Source of the DNA: an uncultured Desulfobacterales bacterium | GTDB lineage: Bacteria; Desulfobacterota; Desulfobaccia; Desulfobaccales; 0-14-0-80-60-11 | Direction of reading: 5' to 3' | NCBI GenBank assembly: GCA_964522695.1 | Contig: CAZFWX010000002.1 | Span: forward strand, 1-60,585 | Length of the DNA stretch: 60,585 nucleotides | In this document: piece by piece, positions 3,736 through 11,363 of the stretch | How the letters are laid out: each line of letters opens with the position of its first letter | How positions within the stretch are numbered: the stretch's first letter is position 1 | Program-made: the position numbers and the translations under genes | Notes under the pieces: model-generated | Told to the model about the DNA's origin: nothing | The model's input: the letters and a program-made list of their open reading frames with translations, nothing else | Database searches by the model: none

Positions 3736-4023
3736 GTGACTCTGCAAGACAAACCCGTGGCCAATCCCCTGGTGGTATTGCGCAAGGAGTTCGATGATTG
3801 GGCCGTGCTCTTTGACCCTGACACCGGCCATGCCTACGGCCTCAACCCGGTCAGCGTCCTGATCTGGCAGTTCCTGGACGGCCGGCACACCGTGGAGGAT
3901 ATCGTCCGGGAGGTCCAGGCCGCATGTGAGGACGTGCCCGAAGCCGCGGCAGAGCATGTGCAGGCATTCATCGCCGACCTGCTGAAAAACGGCCTGGCGG
4001 GTTATGACTACCAGCCCAAGTGA
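3736..4023 (+). CDS. PqqD-family peptide chaperone (RiPP recognition element); ScmD-like
   Basis: 95 aa. WAVLFDPDTGHAYGLNPVSVLIWQFLDGRHTVEDIV...FIADLLKNGL fits the PqqD pattern. GTG start with AGGAG 8 nt upstream. It overlaps the next gene by 20 nt. Confidence 0.85.
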   Translation: MTLQDKPVANPLVVLRKEFDDWAVLFDPDTGHAYGLNPVSVLIWQFLDGRHTVEDIVREVQAACEDVPEAAAEHVQAFIADLLKNGLAGYDYQPK

Positions 4024-5134
4024 TACCCCCCTCAAGGTGATGCAATCACCCCGTTCGGTGGAGGTGGCCATCACCACCCGCTGCAATCTGCGCTGCGCTT
4101 ACTGCTCCCACTTCACCTCCGCCGCGGATGTGGCCCATGATCTTCCCACCGGAGAGTGGCTCCAGTTCTTTGCGGACCTGGGGCGCCGGGCGGTGATGGA
4201 GGTGACCCTGGAAGGGGGCGAGCCCCTGTTGCGCCGGGATTTGCCCCAGCTCATCGACGGCATCGTCAAGAACCGCATGCGCTTCACCATCCTGACCAAC
4301 GGCACGCTCATCACCGAGGACCTGGCCGTGTTCTTGGCCGGGACCCGGCGCTGCAACCAAGTGCAGGTCTCCCTGGACGGCTCCATGCCTGAGACCCACG
4401 ACGTCTGCCGGGGCGAGGGGACCTTTCACCGGGCGTTAAACGGCATCCGCATCCTGCAACGCCACGGCGTGTCCGTCTCCGTGCGGGTGACCATTCACCG
4501 CCACAACGTGCGGGACCTGGCGGGGGTGGCCCGGCTGCTCCTGGAAGAATTGGGCCTGCCCGGATTCTCCACCAACGCGGCCTCCTTCATGGGAATGTGC
4601 CGTTCCCAGGCCGACAGGGTGCAACTCACCGTGGAGGACCGGTCTTTAGCCATGGAGACTCTCTGGGAGCTGAATCAGCAATACGGCGGCCGCATCACCG
4701 GGTCCGCCGGGCCGGTGGCGGAGGTCTATGACTGGCTCCAGATGGAGGCGGCCCGGCAGGAGGGCCGGGAACCCATGGAGGGCCGGGGGGTCCTGGTGGC
4801 CTGCGGCGGCGTCATGAGCAAGCTGGCGGTGCGGGCCGACGGCGTGCTGACCCCGTGCATGCAACTGTGCCATCTGGAACTGGGGCGCATCAACCAGGAC
4901 GACCTGGGCGAGGTCTGGGTGCACCATCCCCAACTCACCCGGCTGCGCCAGCGGAACACCATGGCCTTGAGCGACTTCCCATTCTGTCAGGGCTGTCCCT
5001 ATATCCCTTATTGCACCGGCAACTGTCCGGCTTTGGCCTACACCATGGCGGGTGAGGAGAATCATCCCGCGCCGGACGCCTGCCTCAAGCGCTTTCTGGA
5101 AGCAGGAGGGCGTCTGCCTGATGTCCCCATCTGA
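4004..5134 (+). CDS. Radical SAM/SPASM domain maturase (ScmE/ScmF-type), first copy
   Basis: CNLRCAYC (CxxxCxxC) near the N-terminus and a C-terminal Cys-rich SPASM region (CGGV...TPC...FCQGCPYIPYCTGNCP). Confidence 0.9.
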   Translation: MTTSPSDTPLKVMQSPRSVEVAITTRCNLRCAYCSHFTSAADVAHDLPTGEWLQFFADLGRRAVMEVTLEGGEPLLRRDLPQLIDGIVKNRMRFTILTNGTLITEDLAVFLAGTRRCNQVQVSLDGSMPETHDVCRGEGTFHRALNGIRILQRHGVSVSVRVTIHRHNVRDLAGVARLLLEELGLPGFSTNAASFMGMCRSQADRVQLTVEDRSLAMETLWELNQQYGGRITGSAGPVAEVYDWLQMEAARQEGREPMEGRGVLVACGGVMSKLAVRADGVLTPCMQLCHLELGRINQDDLGEVWVHHPQLTRLRQRNTMALSDFPFCQGCPYIPYCTGNCPALAYTMAGEENHPAPDACLKRFLEAGGRLPDVPI

Positions 5135-6242
5135 GAAATCCCCGGTCCTTTATCCCCTGACCAACATCTATTTTTTCCTGACCGCGGGATGCAACCTGCG
5201 CTGCCGCCACTGCTGGTTTGTTCCCGAAACTCAAGAGGCTCCCCAGACCCGGGGCGGGGTGGAGTTTGACCTCTTCGAGCACATCATCAGGCAGGCCACG
5301 GCCATGGGGGTGGGCGGGGTCAAGCTCACCGGGGGGGAGCCCCTTTTGCACCCCCGCATCAAAAACATCCTGGAGTTGCTCCTGGAAGAGAACCTGGGGC
5401 TCATGTTGGAAACCAACGGCATCCTGCTGACCCCGGAGTTGGCCCGGCTCCTGGCCCGTTTTCCCAGCGTGCAGGTGTCCGTCAGCCTGGACAGCCCCGA
5501 AGCCGGGGTGCACGAGTGGGTGCGGGGCCGGCCGGGCTGCTTTGCCGAGACCCTCAAGGGCATGGCCCACCTGGCGGAGGCCGGCGTGCCCTTCCAGGTC
5601 ATCATGACCCTCATGCGCCGGAACCGGGAGCAGATGGAGGCCATCATTCCCTTCGCGCGCCAGCAGGGCGCGGGCCTGGTGAAATTCAACATCGTCCAGC
5701 CCTTGTCCCGGGGAGAGCAGCTTTACGCCAGTGATGAGGCCCTGAGCGTGCCGGAACTGGTGGAACTGGGGCGCTGGGTGGAAGGGGACCTCTCCCGCGG
5801 CGCAGAGTTGCCTGTCCTTTTTCACCATCCTCCAGCCTTCCAGCCCTTGTCCCGGATGATCCGGGATAACAGCCTGGATTGCCACAGGTGCGGCATCCTG
5901 GGCATTATCGGGGTGCTCCCCAATGGCGCCTGGGCCCTGTGCGGCCTGTCCGAGGAGGTGCCTGAACTTGTCTTCGGCCACGCCGCCCGCGACCGGCTGG
6001 ACGAGGTCTGGCACGAAACCCCCCTGCTGCGGGAATTGCGCCAGGGCCTGCCTCACCGCCTGGAAGGGGTGTGCCATGACTGCCTCCATCAGGCCGTCTG
6101 CCAGGGAAGCTGCATCGCCCAGAATTACATCACGACCAGGAGCCTCTGGGCGCCTTTCTGGTATTGCCGGCAGGCCGAGGAGCTGGGCCTCTTTCCCCCC
6201 TCCCGGAAACGGCAGGCCATAACCTCCTTCGCCCGCGGGTGA
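5121..6242 (+). CDS. Radical SAM/SPASM domain maturase (ScmE/ScmF-type), second copy
   Basis: CNLRCRHC motif and a SPASM-type C-terminus (CGILG...ALCGL...CHDCLHQAVCQGSC). I moved the start to ATG 5121, which overlaps the upstream stop by 14 nt. The track start at 5052 would add a 23-aa out-of-family extension. Confidence 0.9.
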   Translation: MSPSEKSPVLYPLTNIYFFLTAGCNLRCRHCWFVPETQEAPQTRGGVEFDLFEHIIRQATAMGVGGVKLTGGEPLLHPRIKNILELLLEENLGLMLETNGILLTPELARLLARFPSVQVSVSLDSPEAGVHEWVRGRPGCFAETLKGMAHLAEAGVPFQVIMTLMRRNREQMEAIIPFARQQGAGLVKFNIVQPLSRGEQLYASDEALSVPELVELGRWVEGDLSRGAELPVLFHHPPAFQPLSRMIRDNSLDCHRCGILGIIGVLPNGAWALCGLSEEVPELVFGHAARDRLDEVWHETPLLRELRQGLPHRLEGVCHDCLHQAVCQGSCIAQNYITTRSLWAPFWYCRQAEELGLFPPSRKRQAITSFARG

Positions 6243-6327
6243 AGAAAATTTAGCTGAGGTCAGGCCCGACAAACCACAATCTTTTTTCCATATTCTCAAT
6301 TTCCGTATGGAAAAGAGAATAATTCTC

Positions 6328-6357
6328 TTGCATTATAAGAATGACTTTCCCTATAAT
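6328..6357 (+). promoter_or_regulatory. Near-consensus sigma-70 promoter inside the cassette, upstream of the small precursor-like ORF
   Basis: TTGCAT (6328-6333), an 18-nt spacer, then TATAAT (6352-6357), in an AT-rich island between GC-rich genes. Confidence 0.45.
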
Positions 6358-6472
6358 CAGGGCTTAATGTGGTATCCCTGCGGCATGTGTGACCGCGGTT
6401 TGGTCACTCTGCCCCCGTTAGCTGCAAGGGAGATTTTGGTTTCTGCGATCTACCATGTTGGAGGGGAATGGT

Positions 6473-6610
6473 ATGAAGGAAAAGAAAAAGCTGCCTTATG
6501 AAAAGCCCATCTTGACCCGTCTGGATGCACCGGCGGCCGCAGGCTTTCGCAGTTGCGGCGCCGGGTCCGTAGCGAACCTTTGCCCCCGGGGTGCGGTGGT
6601 CAACAGGTAG
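6473..6610 (+). CDS. Candidate RiPP precursor peptide (45 aa), not in the ORF track
   Basis: The ATG 6473..TAG 6610 ORF translates to MKEKKKLPYEKPILTRLDAPAAAGFRSCGAGSVANLCPRGAVVNR. GGAGG (6460-6464) lies 8 nt upstream. It sits between the second rSAM/SPASM gene and the ScmC-like gene on the same strand. The layout is leader-like then core-like, with 2 Cys. Confidence 0.5.
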   Translation: MKEKKKLPYEKPILTRLDAPAAAGFRSCGAGSVANLCPRGAVVNR

Positions 6611-6658
6611 GAAAATTAACCCCAGGGTGTCCCGAACGAGACAAAATTCCTGTTGGGG

Positions 6659-6693
6659 GGGGAGGCTGTGTCCTCCCCTCTGCCGTTATTTTT
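6659..6693 (+). terminator. Hairpin plus T-rich tract just after the precursor-like ORF (possible leaky terminator/attenuator)
   Basis: GGGGAGG (6659-6665) pairs with CCTCCCC (6672-6678) around a 6-nt loop. The T-run TTATTTTT at 6686-6693 is not directly adjacent to the stem, so this is weaker than a canonical terminator. Confidence 0.3.
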
Positions 6694-6780
6694 CGTGAAC
6701 TCATTTCGCTGCTCTCCGGACCGTATCGCTTTTTCCTTGCCCCACCCCTTCCTGGCCTGCCCAGCCTGCGAGGCCCGCAC

Positions 6781-7737
6781 ATGAACCCTCCCGCCGGACC
6801 ATCCGTGCGGCTGCGGGACCTCCTCCAGGATGGCTGTAATGGCGGTGACGCCTCAATTCCGGATCAGGGCTTCTGCCTTGACCTCGCCGACGGCAACCGC
6901 TGGTGGCTTACAGCCTGCACTCCCACCTTCCCCTGGCTGACGCGGCTGGCGGCCATTATGGAACTGCCCCCTGGTTTGCCTGACGGCCGCCCGGAACTGA
7001 TCTACACCGAAGCCTTGCCGGCCCGGGATTTGGCCGCGTTGGGCTTTGTCCCGGAAGAAGTGGGCTGGGGGCCGAAAGGCCAGCGGCCTTTGCGCTGCTG
7101 GCGCCACCCCGGTCTGCCGGACGTGCTTTGCGAATTGCACCATGACGGGAGCGCAGAATTCTTTCTGATCAACATGTGGAACTCCCTCACTGTCATCTAC
7201 CTGGACAGCGTGTGGCGGGGCGGCCTGCCTCTCCACGCCGGCCTGGCGGCTTTTCAAGGCCAGGGCGTGCTCTTCGCGGCGCCGGGGGATACGGGCAAAT
7301 CCACCACCTGCCGCCGTCTGCCGCGGCCCTGGGAGATGCTGGACGACGATGAAACCCTGGTGGTGAAAACCCCTGGGGCCTTCTACGTGGCTCACCCCTT
7401 CCCCACCTGGTCCGACTATCTCTTCCAAAGGGGGATGCCTACCTGGAATGTGCAGCATACTGTGCCGGTCAAGGCCGTCTGCTTTCTGGAGCAGCATCCC
7501 GAAAACAGAATTACGCCCCTGAGCCAAGCCCAGGCTGCGGTGTGCATCACCCAATCAGTGGAGCAGATTTGCACCAGGACCTGGGAGAATCTCCCCCGGG
7601 AAGAGATGGTCCGCCGCCGGACGCAAGTCTTCGCCAACGCCGCGGACCTGGCCCTGGCCGTGCCGGCTTTCCGGATGCGCCTCAGTCTGCACGGCCACTT
7701 TTGGGAAGACCTGGAGCGCCTCCTGGGCTGGCGGTGA
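6781..7737 (+). CDS. ScmC-like conserved cassette protein with a P-loop (HprK-type kinase-like core?)
   Basis: 318 aa from ATG 6781, with GAGG 9 nt upstream. The Walker-A-like GDTGKST is at 7285-7305. The track start at 6553 (TTG) would overlap the precursor-like ORF. Confidence 0.7.
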   Translation: MNPPAGPSVRLRDLLQDGCNGGDASIPDQGFCLDLADGNRWWLTACTPTFPWLTRLAAIMELPPGLPDGRPELIYTEALPARDLAALGFVPEEVGWGPKGQRPLRCWRHPGLPDVLCELHHDGSAEFFLINMWNSLTVIYLDSVWRGGLPLHAGLAAFQGQGVLFAAPGDTGKSTTCRRLPRPWEMLDDDETLVVKTPGAFYVAHPFPTWSDYLFQRGMPTWNVQHTVPVKAVCFLEQHPENRITPLSQAQAAVCITQSVEQICTRTWENLPREEMVRRRTQVFANAADLALAVPAFRMRLSLHGHFWEDLERLLGWR

Positions 7738-7813
7738 CGCAGCAAATTTTTTATCGTGGGGAAGTCGGCGAACTGTGGCTCCTCACCCCCTTCCTTAGAA
7801 AAAGTCCTTTATA

Positions 7814-8395
7814 ATGGCAGCCATGAGCCGGCGTATGCTCTATTTCGGTCCCAGCATGAATCCCACCCTCCGCCCGGGGGACGACCTTGTCATCGCGCCC
7901 TGTGCCGGCCGCGAGGTCCGGGTGGGGGACGTGGTGGTCTTTGCCCACCCCCACAATCCTGGAGAACGTGTGGTCCACCGGGTGGCGGCAGTGGAGGAAA
8001 AGGGCCTGCGGACCCGGGGAGACAATTGCCCGGCTGCCGATCCCTGGCTGGTGGAGCCTGATACGATCATCGGCTATGTGGCCGCGGTGCGGCGGGGCGG
8101 CCGCACCTTGCCGGTCCGGCAAGGGGTGATGGGGAAAATTCACGTCTTTCAGACATTCAGGCGCCTGGATGAAATGATCTCCGCCTGGCTCCGGCCCCTC
8201 TACCGCCGCCTGGCGGCCACAACCCCTCTCAAAGGCTGGCTTCATCCCCGCCTTCTGGTTTTTGAGCGCGCCGGCGGCCGGGAGTGTCAGCTCTGGCTGG
8301 GTCCGTGGCTCATCGGCCGCCGCCTCCCCCACGGGGACGGCTGGCAGATCAAGCGCCCCTTCCGCCTCTTTGTAGATGAAACTGAGTTGCCGTGA
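7814..8395 (+). CDS. S26-family signal-peptidase-like protease, ER/archaeal (SipW/Sec11) type, without a TM segment
   Basis: 193 aa with FGPSMNPTL (Ser box), VVHRV (His where bacterial SPase I has the catalytic Lys) and TRGDNCPAADP (GDN box). I see no hydrophobic anchor. Confidence 0.75.
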   Translation: MAAMSRRMLYFGPSMNPTLRPGDDLVIAPCAGREVRVGDVVVFAHPHNPGERVVHRVAAVEEKGLRTRGDNCPAADPWLVEPDTIIGYVAAVRRGGRTLPVRQGVMGKIHVFQTFRRLDEMISAWLRPLYRRLAATTPLKGWLHPRLLVFERAGGRECQLWLGPWLIGRRLPHGDGWQIKRPFRLFVDETELP

Positions 8396-9251: not shown

Positions 9252-11363
9252 ATGCAGCCCGGCCCCACGGACATTTTACTGCGCATCGACAATCTGACGG
9301 TCCATTACGGCGCGGCCCAGGCACTCTTTGGGGTGGATCTGGCCGTGCGCCGGGGGGAGACGGTGGCTCTCGTGGGGGCCAACGGCGCGGGCAAGACCAG
9401 CCTGCTCAAGGCCGTCATGGGGCTGCTCAAACCCAGCGGCGGGCGCATCAGCTTCGACGGCCGGGACGTCACCGGCTCCACCGCCGCCGCCATGGCCGGC
9501 CGGGGGGTGGCCCTGGCCCCGGAAGGCCGGGAAATGTTCGGCGATCTCTCCGTCCGGGAGAACCTGGAATTGGGCGCCCTGGCTCTCTCCCCCGGCCGCC
9601 GGGAAATGGCCCGCCGGCTGGAAGAAGTCCTGGGGCGCTTTCCCAAGCTAAGGGACCGACTCTCCCAGCGCACCGCCACGCTCTCCGGCGGCGAGCAGCA
9701 GATGGTGGCCATCGGCCGGGCCTTAATGGCCGGGCCCCGCCTGTTGCTCCTGGACGAGCCCAGTCTGGGCCTCGCGCCCTTGATCACCGACGAAATCTTT
9801 GACATCATTCATCAGCTCTCACGCTCCGGGGTAACGATCCTCCTGGTGGAGCAAAACGCCGCCCGGGCCCTCACCGCTTCGACCTCGGCCTATCTCCTGG
9901 CCAACGGCCGGATCGTCGGCGCGGGACTGAGCGGCAAGCTCCTGGTGGACCCGGAACTGCGCCGGGCCTTTTTGGGCGCCGCCTCTGACAACAACCCGGC
10001 CGCCAGCCGCCTGGGCGCGGCGGGCCTCACCAATATCCGACTGGAAAAGCCCATGACTACGCCGAAAACCTTCATGCCCCCTTTCACGACCGGGGAAGAA
10101 TTGCAGGCCCACCAGGTGCAGGGCCTCCAATGGACCGTGCGCCACGCCTATGAGGGCTCGAGCTTCTACCGGGCCAAGCTGGATGAGGCAGGCGTCACGC
10201 CCGGGGACATCCGTTCCCTTGCGGACCTGGCCAAACTCCCCCTTACCACCCCCGAGGACCTGCGGGACGGCTACCCCTTTCCGTTCCGGGCCGTGCCGTA
10301 TGAGCAGATCGTGCGCATCCACGCCTCCTCCGGCACCACCGGCAAGCGGAAAATTTTGGGTTACACGCAAAAGGACCTGGACGACTGGGCCCATTTCTTC
10401 GCCCGCTGCTACGAAATGGCCGGCGTCACCACTCTGGACCGGGTGCAGATCGCCGTGGGCTATGGCGTGTGGACCGCGGGCGTGGGCTTCCAGTTGGGCG
10501 CGGAAAAACTGGGCGCCCTGGTGATCCCCGTGGGCCCGGGCAACCTGGATATGCACTGCGAATTCTTCCTGGATTTGCAGCCCACGGTCTTTTGCTGCAC
10601 CGCGTCCATGGGCCTGCTCATGGCCGAAGAGATCCACAAGCGGGGCATCGCCCACAAGATCAATATCAAAAAGATCATTTACGGCTCGGAGCGCTCCAGC
10701 GTCTCCATGCGCAAAAAGATCGCCGACCTCTTCGGCGGCGTGGAACTCTTCGACATCGTCGGCATGACCGAACTCTACGGCCCGGGCACCGGCATCGAGT
10801 GTCCTCACCACGACTGCATCCACTACTGGGGCGACTACTACATCCTGGAAATCCTGGACCCCGACACCTTGACGCCCCTGCCCGACGGCGAGTGGGGCGA
10901 GATGGTGGTGACCACGCTCACGAAGCAAGCCGCGCCCCTGATCCGCTACCGCACCCACGACATCACCCGCATCATCCCGGCCCCCTGCACCTGCGGCACG
11001 GTGCTCCCCCGGCATTCGCGCCTTCGGGGCCGCACCGACGACATGTTCAAGTTCCGGGGCGTCAACATTTACCCCTCCTCAATCGACCGGCTGCTCTCCG
11101 AGGTCCCCGGCCTGGGCTCCGAATACCAGGTGCATCTCACCCGGGATGCGGCGGGCCGGGACCACATGCTGCTCAAAGTGGAGCGGGGCGAGGGCGTGGA
11201 GCCCCGCCGGGCCGACGAACTGACCCGGGAGATCATCTACGTTATCAAACACAAACTCCTGGTCACCCCCACCGTGGAGGTGACGGCCTACGGGGATCTG
11301 CCCCGCTCGGAGCGCAAAAGCAAAAGGGTCTTTGACACGCGCATCACCGATTCGGTGGTGTAG
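9252..11363 (+). CDS. In-frame fusion ORF: LivF-type branched-chain amino acid ABC ATPase (aa 1-242) + linker + phenylacetate-CoA ligase PaaK (from aa 268)
   Basis: The N-terminal part has GANGAGKTS (Walker A), LSGGEQQM and LLLLDEP, and ends in ...ELRRAFLGA like LivF. There is no stop codon. After a 25-aa linker, MTTPKTF...SSGTTGKRK...RSERKSKRVFD is typical of PaaK. An internal ATG is at 10053. Confidence 0.8.
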   Translation: MQPGPTDILLRIDNLTVHYGAAQALFGVDLAVRRGETVALVGANGAGKTSLLKAVMGLLKPSGGRISFDGRDVTGSTAAAMAGRGVALAPEGREMFGDLSVRENLELGALALSPGRREMARRLEEVLGRFPKLRDRLSQRTATLSGGEQQMVAIGRALMAGPRLLLLDEPSLGLAPLITDEIFDIIHQLSRSGVTILLVEQNAARALTASTSAYLLANGRIVGAGLSGKLLVDPELRRAFLGAASDNNPAASRLGAAGLTNIRLEKPMTTPKTFMPPFTTGEELQAHQVQGLQWTVRHAYEGSSFYRAKLDEAGVTPGDIRSLADLAKLPLTTPEDLRDGYPFPFRAVPYEQIVRIHASSGTTGKRKILGYTQKDLDDWAHFFARCYEMAGVTTLDRVQIAVGYGVWTAGVGFQLGAEKLGALVIPVGPGNLDMHCEFFLDLQPTVFCCTASMGLLMAEEIHKRGIAHKINIKKIIYGSERSSVSMRKKIADLFGGVELFDIVGMTELYGPGTGIECPHHDCIHYWGDYYILEILDPDTLTPLPDGEWGEMVVTTLTKQAAPLIRYRTHDITRIIPAPCTCGTVLPRHSRLRGRTDDMFKFRGVNIYPSSIDRLLSEVPGLGSEYQVHLTRDAAGRDHMLLKVERGEGVEPRRADELTREIIYVIKHKLLVTPTVEVTAYGDLPRSERKSKRVFDTRITDSVV

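Follow-up and report, generated by a model that had tools for sequence, protein, structure and literature searches.

Does the SynChlorMet (SCM) cassette of this uncultured Desulfobacterales bacterium encode a substrate for its own radical SAM (rSAM) enzymes, and is that substrate the product of the short ORF at positions 6473 to 6610, between the second of these enzymes and ScmC? An initial annotation of the window (the whole 60,585-nucleotide stretch of DNA analyzed here) had proposed the ORF as the missing precursor of the cassette. Synteny, a family profile and four invariant residues, P12, C28, G31 and C37, support its role as the precursor. We consider it very probable that the ORF is scmA, the precursor gene of the SCM rSAM RiPP cassette, with the maturation roles proposed below for ScmD, ScmE, ScmF, ScmC and an S26 peptidase.

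The ORF and the surrounding cassette

From ATG 6473 to the TAG at 6608-6610 (+ strand), the window sequence translates into the 45-residue peptide MKEKKKLPYEKPILTRLDAPAAAGFRSCGAGSVANLCPRGAVVNR. A Shine-Dalgarno sequence, GGAGG, is found at 6460-6464 on the same strand, separated from the start codon by an 8-nt spacer (context, GGAATGGT). The peptide contains two cysteines, Cys28 (TGC 6554-6556) and Cys37 (TGC 6581-6583), in a C-x8-C spacing, and alanines at residues 21 to 23; all of these sequence details had been read correctly in the initial annotation. In the mechanical ORF list, the frame opens further upstream, at an in-frame ATG (6455) from which it would encode 51 residues. That start has no Shine-Dalgarno sequence and was rejected, the start at 6473 being preferred because the closest orthologue, from locus L001, also has MKEK at its N terminus. 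The ORF has already been called as a protein (P0001) on the window's own contig.

According to NCBIfam and Pfam matches, the ORF sits within what these models identify as a complete SCM cassette on the + strand, in the order ScmD, ScmE, ScmF, small ORF, ScmC and soluble S26 peptidase. ScmD (3736-4023) is a PqqD-like RiPP recognition element (RRE) that matches TIGR04248 with 135 bits (cutoff, 100) and also the lasso PqqD chaperone model NF033530 (E value of 2e-9). It is followed by two rSAM/SPASM enzymes, ScmE (4004-5134; TIGR04250, 598 bits, cutoff of 400; Pfam Radical_SAM plus SPASM) and ScmF (approximately 5121-6242; TIGR04251, 501 bits, cutoff of 400), with the full SPASM CX2CX5CX3C motif visible in both translations. 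For ScmF, ATG 5121 is preferred as the start over GTG 5052, the TIGR04251 match beginning at residue 34 of the long ORF. Downstream of the small ORF lie ScmC (6781-7737; TIGR04249, 254 bits), a P-loop protein with an HPr-kinase/PEPCK-like fold, and a soluble S26 signal peptidase-like protein of the archaeal/ER, Ser-His type (7814-8395; TIGR02228, 54.4 bits, cutoff of 51.85), which is a candidate leader peptidase. ScmC, ScmD, ScmE and ScmF each score above their own equivalog cutoff. The flanking genes are thus as first described, with the end of ScmF at 6242 and ScmC on the same strand, and the S26 peptidase, placed about 1.2 kb downstream, starts 1,204 nt past the ORF stop.

Unrelated genes flank the cassette, BaxI and an M50 peptidase upstream and a LivF/PaaK ORF downstream, and a Pfam and NCBIfam survey of the cassette proteins (3736-8395) revealed no exporter or immunity gene. 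The downstream gene is a single 703-aa ORF (9252-11363, + strand) in which a LivF-like ABC ATPase (residues 8 to 242) is joined to a PaaK-like phenylacetate-CoA ligase (residues 282 to 697); it may represent a gene fusion or a missed stop or frameshift.

Two candidate regulatory sites border the ORF. Upstream, an AT-rich island (6290-6370; 31% GC versus 61% for the window), about 115 nt before the scmA start, includes a promoter-like TTGCAT-18 nt-TATAAT sequence on the + strand (6328-6357; TTGCAT at 6328-6333 and TATAAT at 6352-6357), found by reading the sequence and falling below the -35 threshold of our scan. The TATAAT site may belong to a putative dedicated promoter of the precursor gene. 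Downstream, 46 nt past the scmA stop and before ScmC, a 10-bp GC-rich hairpin with a T-rich tail (6656-6681, + strand) is a possible attenuating terminator; leaky terminators are often found 3' of RiPP precursor genes, and the position of this hairpin fits. Since the promoter and terminator scan of the region gave site counts no higher than the shuffle expectation, the hairpin and the TATAAT site are only positional hints.

Family membership and relation to ScmA

Queried against 5.8 billion proteins, the 45-aa peptide gave no match other than itself, so the loci were collected through ScmC relatives instead. These relatives fall into more than 480 protein clusters and are encoded in 144 stretches of species-representative genomes; 28 were aligned (alignment A1), and 80 genomic loci were fetched from species-representative genomes. 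One ScmC that is 73% identical to that of the window (P0005) is encoded on a 1.3-kb contig whose start already falls within ScmC, leaving the peptide region outside it. Near ScmC we found a recurring small peptide with a Lys-rich start, a K-[Y/W]-E-K-P-x-L-[IV]-D-L stretch and a short spacer ending in A-x-G, followed by a Gly/Ser/Thr-rich core built of C-x-x-G modules of about 10 residues.

The seed of our profile HMM consisted of 75 cassette-linked peptides; all came from other genomes, and the window and L001 were left out. This held-out HMM gave 86 matches, of which 76 are on the same strand as ScmC; they are spread over 62 of the 80 loci, and in many of the 18 loci with no match ScmC is at a contig end. 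In 39 loci, ScmC follows the end of ScmF by less than 1.5 kb, and 31 of these loci have a match between the two genes. Among the remaining eight, the ScmF-ScmC gap is shorter than 150 nt in seven, which is too short for a peptide gene, and several of these seven carry the peptide elsewhere in the locus; the eighth, L017, has a motif-bearing peptide within its 298-nt gap. A conserved small ORF in other SCM cassettes, which the initial annotation had suggested looking for, is therefore present in most of the loci.

The window ORF itself scores 34.7 bits against the held-out HMM (E value of 8.3e-10 among 1,481 six-frame stop-to-stop segments; 34.7 to 35.9 bits and an E value of about 1e-9 across the family HMMs), compared with 10.0 bits for the next-best six-frame segment of the 60-kb window and 10.7 bits for the best of 2,000 shuffled versions of the peptide. 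The L001 peptide scores 21.8 bits, and an independently fetched peptide from locus L082, MKKETELLKYEKPCLHRLDAGVRGNATYCNPGYGAGLFCNDGSGAGVPIP, scores 36.9 bits. Because the leader motif was part of the regular expression used to pick the seed, the HMM is partly self-selecting; this is mitigated by invariants confined to the core and by matches to the curated ScmA model TIGR04252.

Indeed, the alignment of 59 sequences (A2) has invariant columns at P12, C28, G31 and C37 of the window peptide, among them both cysteines, whose conservation the initial annotation had suggested testing, and near-invariant columns at G24 (92% Gly) and G40 (98%). Across 59 to 77 family members, the leader motif columns hold an aromatic residue (Tyr, 83%; Trp, 16%), proline (100%) and leucine (79%). 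The spacings of the window peptide also resemble those of the family: 19 residues from the aromatic residue to the first cysteine (family, 17 to 20), a cysteine period of 9 (family mode of 10, with 77% of periods between 9 and 11) and 8 residues after the last cysteine (family, 6 to 8).

An ORF that is short, absent in its 45-codon form from the ORF track and free of any Pfam or NCBIfam match could have arisen by chance in a noncoding spacer, in which case the conserved segment would be an RNA or DNA element with a regulatory role. Such an origin is hard to reconcile with 34.7 bits against the roughly 10 bits of other segments and shuffles, with the protein call P0001 or with a search of Rfam families, which returned no match over 6150-6850. 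Moreover, within the 540-nt ScmF-ScmC spacer, DNA similarity to L001 is limited to the RBS and the leader codons, and 10 of the 23 residues identical between the two peptides are encoded by different codons, which points to selection on the protein. We therefore regard a chance ORF as extremely improbable, and the comparisons indicate that ORF 6473-6610 is a real, protein-coding gene, conserved beyond chance.

Is this family already known? Scanning the longer cassette relatives brought up the NCBIfam model TIGR04252, "SynChlorMet cassette protein ScmA", a bioinformatic family of predicted precursors; the model matches 26 of the 59 aligned cassette-linked peptides (best E value, 6.6e-10). At the level of the family, then, the precursor had not been missing, as first thought, since ScmA was already catalogued. 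Neither the 45-aa nor the 51-aa form of the window peptide matches TIGR04252 at an E value of 10 or less (model cutoff, 35 bits), nor does the L001 peptide match it. With ScmC, ScmD, ScmE and ScmF around it and with homology to peptides that TIGR04252 recognizes, ORF 6473-6610 is, by sequence comparison, a divergent, two-cysteine member of the ScmA family. It shares with the TIGR04252 members the ScmC/D/E/F context, the YEKPxL leader and the C-x-x-G repeat core; it differs from them in having two Cys modules only, with an insertion of 2 residues separating the conserved Gly from the first Cys and with Ala in place of Ser/Thr/Gly in the last module. That TIGR04252 misses this divergent two-module copy explains why the window peptide was left unannotated. 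More generally, a good share of the family escapes the curated model, which makes many cassettes appear to be precursor-less. An A2 profile search of a large protein database returned 16 short peptides at an E value of 1e-3 or less, none of them named ScmA; because short peptides cannot reach strong E values at such a database size, this search is uninformative for naming. Literature searches on the SynChlorMet cassette, the Scm genes and the TIGR accessions found no relevant publication.

The window scmA has the family minimum of two C-x-x-G modules. At the other extreme, some cassettes carry four to five scmA paralogues (L005, 4836-5912; L033, 3974-9789), with up to 13 core cysteines per peptide, which shows expansion by module duplication. 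In loci L082 (7531-10547) and L083 (6786-9802), which have the next-closest ScmC (50% identity), genes for a Fur-family regulator, ZnuA and an ABC zinc/manganese uptake system directly follow the cassette; this may hint at a metal link or be a coincidence.

Predicted leader recognition, core modification and cleavage

The predicted leader, M1-G24 (6473-6544, + strand), contains the motif Y9-E-K-P12-I-L14 (6497-6514) and ends in the conserved A22-x-G24, as delimited by column statistics over 59 to 77 members. The initial annotation had noted a "KPxLxxL stretch" here, which is better read as an RRE-binding [Y/W]xxPx[L/V/I] motif: discrete lasso RREs bind [Y/W]xxPx[L/V/I/F/A] (PMC13381572), and the window motif matches this type in sequence. 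We propose that ScmD, a discrete PqqD-like protein, would bind Y9-x-x-P12-x-L14 and present the peptide to the enzymes.

Not every conserved small ORF in a gene cluster encodes a precursor, and the peptide might in principle be a real small protein that acts as a regulator, immunity factor or chaperone of the cassette; nothing specific favors this. The pairing of an RRE-type leader motif with a neighboring gene for a discrete RRE, a hypervariable, repeat-expanding C-terminal half rich in Gly, Ser and Cys, and two to five tandem copies in some loci (L005 and L033) are hallmarks of RiPP precursors, and they make a nonsubstrate role very unlikely.

As a precursor, the peptide would have a core of F25-R45 (6545-6607, + strand) with two C-x-x-G modules, C28/G31 and C37/G40 (cysteine codons at 6554-6556 and 6581-6583). 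The initial annotation had combined a cut by the S26 enzyme after Ala21-Ala22-Ala23, which would leave a 22-aa core starting with GFRSC, with one crosslink, and one Cys, per rSAM enzyme. The second part drew on the presence of two cysteines in the peptide and two rSAM genes in the cassette. This agreement is a coincidence: the family peptides have 2 to 13 core cysteines, most often 3 to 6, yet each cassette seen complete has one ScmE and one ScmF. We propose instead that ScmE and ScmF would modify the C-x-x-G modules processively; each module would be a target of both enzymes, or the two would carry out different chemistries, rather than each taking one Cys.

ScmE scores 88 bits against PapB (cutoff, 340), 105 against StsB (625) and 73 against SkfB (300), and ScmF scores 80 bits against AlbA (850); neither reaches the cutoff of a characterized thioether-forming rSAM/SPASM family, and both score about as well against PqqE, MftC and NirJ/Ahb enzymes. 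Given how far below the PapB, StsB, AlbA and SkfB cutoffs they fall, thioether chemistry is something that we infer. On the side of the peptide, no core position is near-invariant apart from Cys and the Gly at +3. Such near-invariance of Cys is the pattern expected where Cys reacts, as in sacti- and ranthipeptides, and it argues that Cys is the reacting residue. Cys-derived thioether crosslinks of the sactionine/ranthionine type would be the most likely core chemistry, a conjecture given that ScmE and ScmF score below the cutoffs of the thioether families.

The same enzyme scores leave some room for a precursor with nonthioether chemistry, such as epimerization, C-C or C-O crosslinks, Cys conversion or free metal-binding thiols. 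As a variant, the product could be an intracellular cofactor or metal-binding peptide and not a secreted antibiotic, in line with a cassette that has no exporter or immunity gene, with a peptidase that has no membrane anchor and with the Fur-ZnuA zinc-uptake genes that adjoin the L082 and L083 cassettes. We hold this to be possible, if clearly the less likely course: a core in which nothing but Cys and the Gly at +3 is near-invariant is what a reacting Cys would give. 

The candidate for leader removal is the S26 protein. Of the 80 loci, 59 encode an S26-type peptidase homologue, usually as the gene immediately following ScmC. A comparison of 58 homologues shows conservation of the SMxPT serine, of the GDN box and of an HRV histidine, which occupies the place of the lysine of bacterial enzymes. 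The window protein can be aligned to human SEC11A through S14, H55 and D70/D76, a match that is marginal by itself (E value of 0.09). The window protein begins at the catalytic domain and has no membrane anchor. A Ser-His-Asp, archaeal-type SpI-like peptidase has been shown experimentally to act as an RRE-dependent RiPP leader peptidase (PMC13381572). With this precedent, the frequency of the gene and the conserved Ser and His, the assignment of the S26 enzyme as leader peptidase, made in the initial annotation, is plausible. The window protein and its homologues (58 loci) also carry a C-terminal extension of about 100 residues that ends in W-x-I-R-R-P-F-R-L-F-x-D-E-x-x-L-P and has no family match; it could be a docking surface for the RRE or the peptide.

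The position of the cut is a separate matter. Ala21-Ala22-Ala23 fits the classical -3/-1 rule of S26 signal peptidases, and conservation of an A-x-A motif was among the checks that the initial annotation had suggested. In the family alignment, however, the A21 and A23 columns are unconserved, whereas G24 is conserved and the A22 column is 49% Ala, and otherwise mostly Val, Thr or Gly. If the -3/-1 small-residue rule applies, the conserved A22-x-G24 would place the cut after G24 and before F25. Nor is A-x-A a requirement, the characterized RiPP SpI-like peptidase cutting after F-E-T (PMC13381572). Together with the cysteine counts, these observations render a cut after the three alanines with one crosslink per rSAM enzyme improbable. 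We infer a leader/core boundary at G24/F25 and propose that the S26 Ser-His peptidase would remove the leader in a ScmD-dependent way, most plausibly just after A22-A23-G24, a placement drawn solely from conservation. The resulting core would have about 21 residues, FRSCGAGSVANLCPRGAVVNR.

The remaining enzyme of the cassette is ScmC. Its profile matches HprK/P around the P-loop (E value of 0.014), and its AF2 model (pLDDT of 87) retrieves PEPCK (E value of 1e-7) and HprK/P (E value of 5e-5) with Foldseek. By this model, ScmC has an HPr-kinase/PEPCK-like fold and is a candidate kinase. As a P-loop enzyme of this fold, it would phosphorylate the peptide at the expense of an NTP, with Ser27 or Ser32 as possible sites. 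A family-wide phosphorylation site is not obvious, since the last module of the window peptide has Ala and not Ser/Thr at C+4. In three loci (L026, L034 and L065), ScmC homologues occur with no rSAM gene at all, in a set composed of PqqD, a ScmC-like protein, an ABC exporter and NTP_transf_5. Such rSAM-less sets (e.g., L034, 5170-10773) are preceded by a peptide with a KFEKPKLIRI leader and a Pro-rich core that has no C-x-x-G modules; the L034 peptide is Cys free. They resemble the clusters for linear polyphosphorylated peptides (LPP) discussed below, but in uncultured, non-Bacillota lineages.

Comparison with known RiPP systems

ORF 6473-6610 completes the annotation of a widespread cassette. 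As a divergent member of a catalogued family, it does not reveal a new kind of system. The comparison yields rules that can be tested, namely, a YxxPxL leader, an A-x-G junction and a C-x-x-G decapeptide module, and a 45-residue precursor with two cysteines is a convenient minimal substrate for studying the function of ScmE and ScmF.

The sacti- and ranthipeptides, such as subtilosin (AlbA), freyrasin (PapB) and SCIFF, have a Cys core, SPASM maturases and an RRE-dependent leader, and the SCM system is alike in these respects. It differs from them in that ScmE and ScmF match PapB, StsB, AlbA and SkfB weakly, far below the cutoffs, in that the RRE is a separate protein, and in that each cassette has two rSAM enzymes and a core with a regular C-x-x-G repeat of about 10 residues. 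The kinase-fold protein and the S26 peptidase, furthermore, are core components of SCM.

A second resemblance is to the lasso leaders that work with a discrete, PqqD-like B1 protein. The two systems have the [Y/W]xxPx[L/V/I] motif in common, ScmD matches the lasso PqqD model, and two family peptides weakly match a lasso leader model. Among the cassette proteins, Pfam and NCBIfam gave no match to a lasso B2 cysteine protease (transglutaminase-like) or to an asparagine synthetase-like macrolactam cyclase.

The third comparison is with the LPP clusters described in Bacillota, in which an HprK-like kinase and a Ser-His SpI-like peptidase act on a precursor with a YxxP leader (Popov et al., Nat Commun 2026, PMC13381572). 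LPP and SCM share the YxxP leader, a discrete PqqD-like RRE, an HprK-like protein and an archaeal-type SpI-like peptidase. In contrast to LPP, SCM adds two rSAM/SPASM enzymes and a Cys/Gly repeat core, and the NTP transferase and MsbA-type exporter of the LPP core set are absent from the SCM cassette in this window. Their distributions also differ, SCM being found mainly in anaerobic Thermodesulfobacteriota, Chlorobi, candidate phyla and Methanocella and LPP in Bacillota.

On the strength of the shared LPP-like trio, SCM can be read as a leader/RRE/kinase/peptidase module to which two SPASM rSAM enzymes acting on C-x-x-G have been joined. Taking this further, we speculate that SCM products might form a chemically new RiPP class, in which an LPP-type module and two SPASM rSAM enzymes would install an undescribed crosslink in each C-x-x-G module, for example, one linking the sulfur of Cys with the invariant Gly at +3, perhaps under the control of phosphorylation. 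We put this forward tentatively, as rather doubtful at present; if it were true, the two-module peptide of the window would be the smallest natural substrate on which to solve the chemistry. Independently of this speculation, the Ser-His S26 peptidase and the HprK-fold protein, both conserved, tie the SCM cassette to the LPP peptides.
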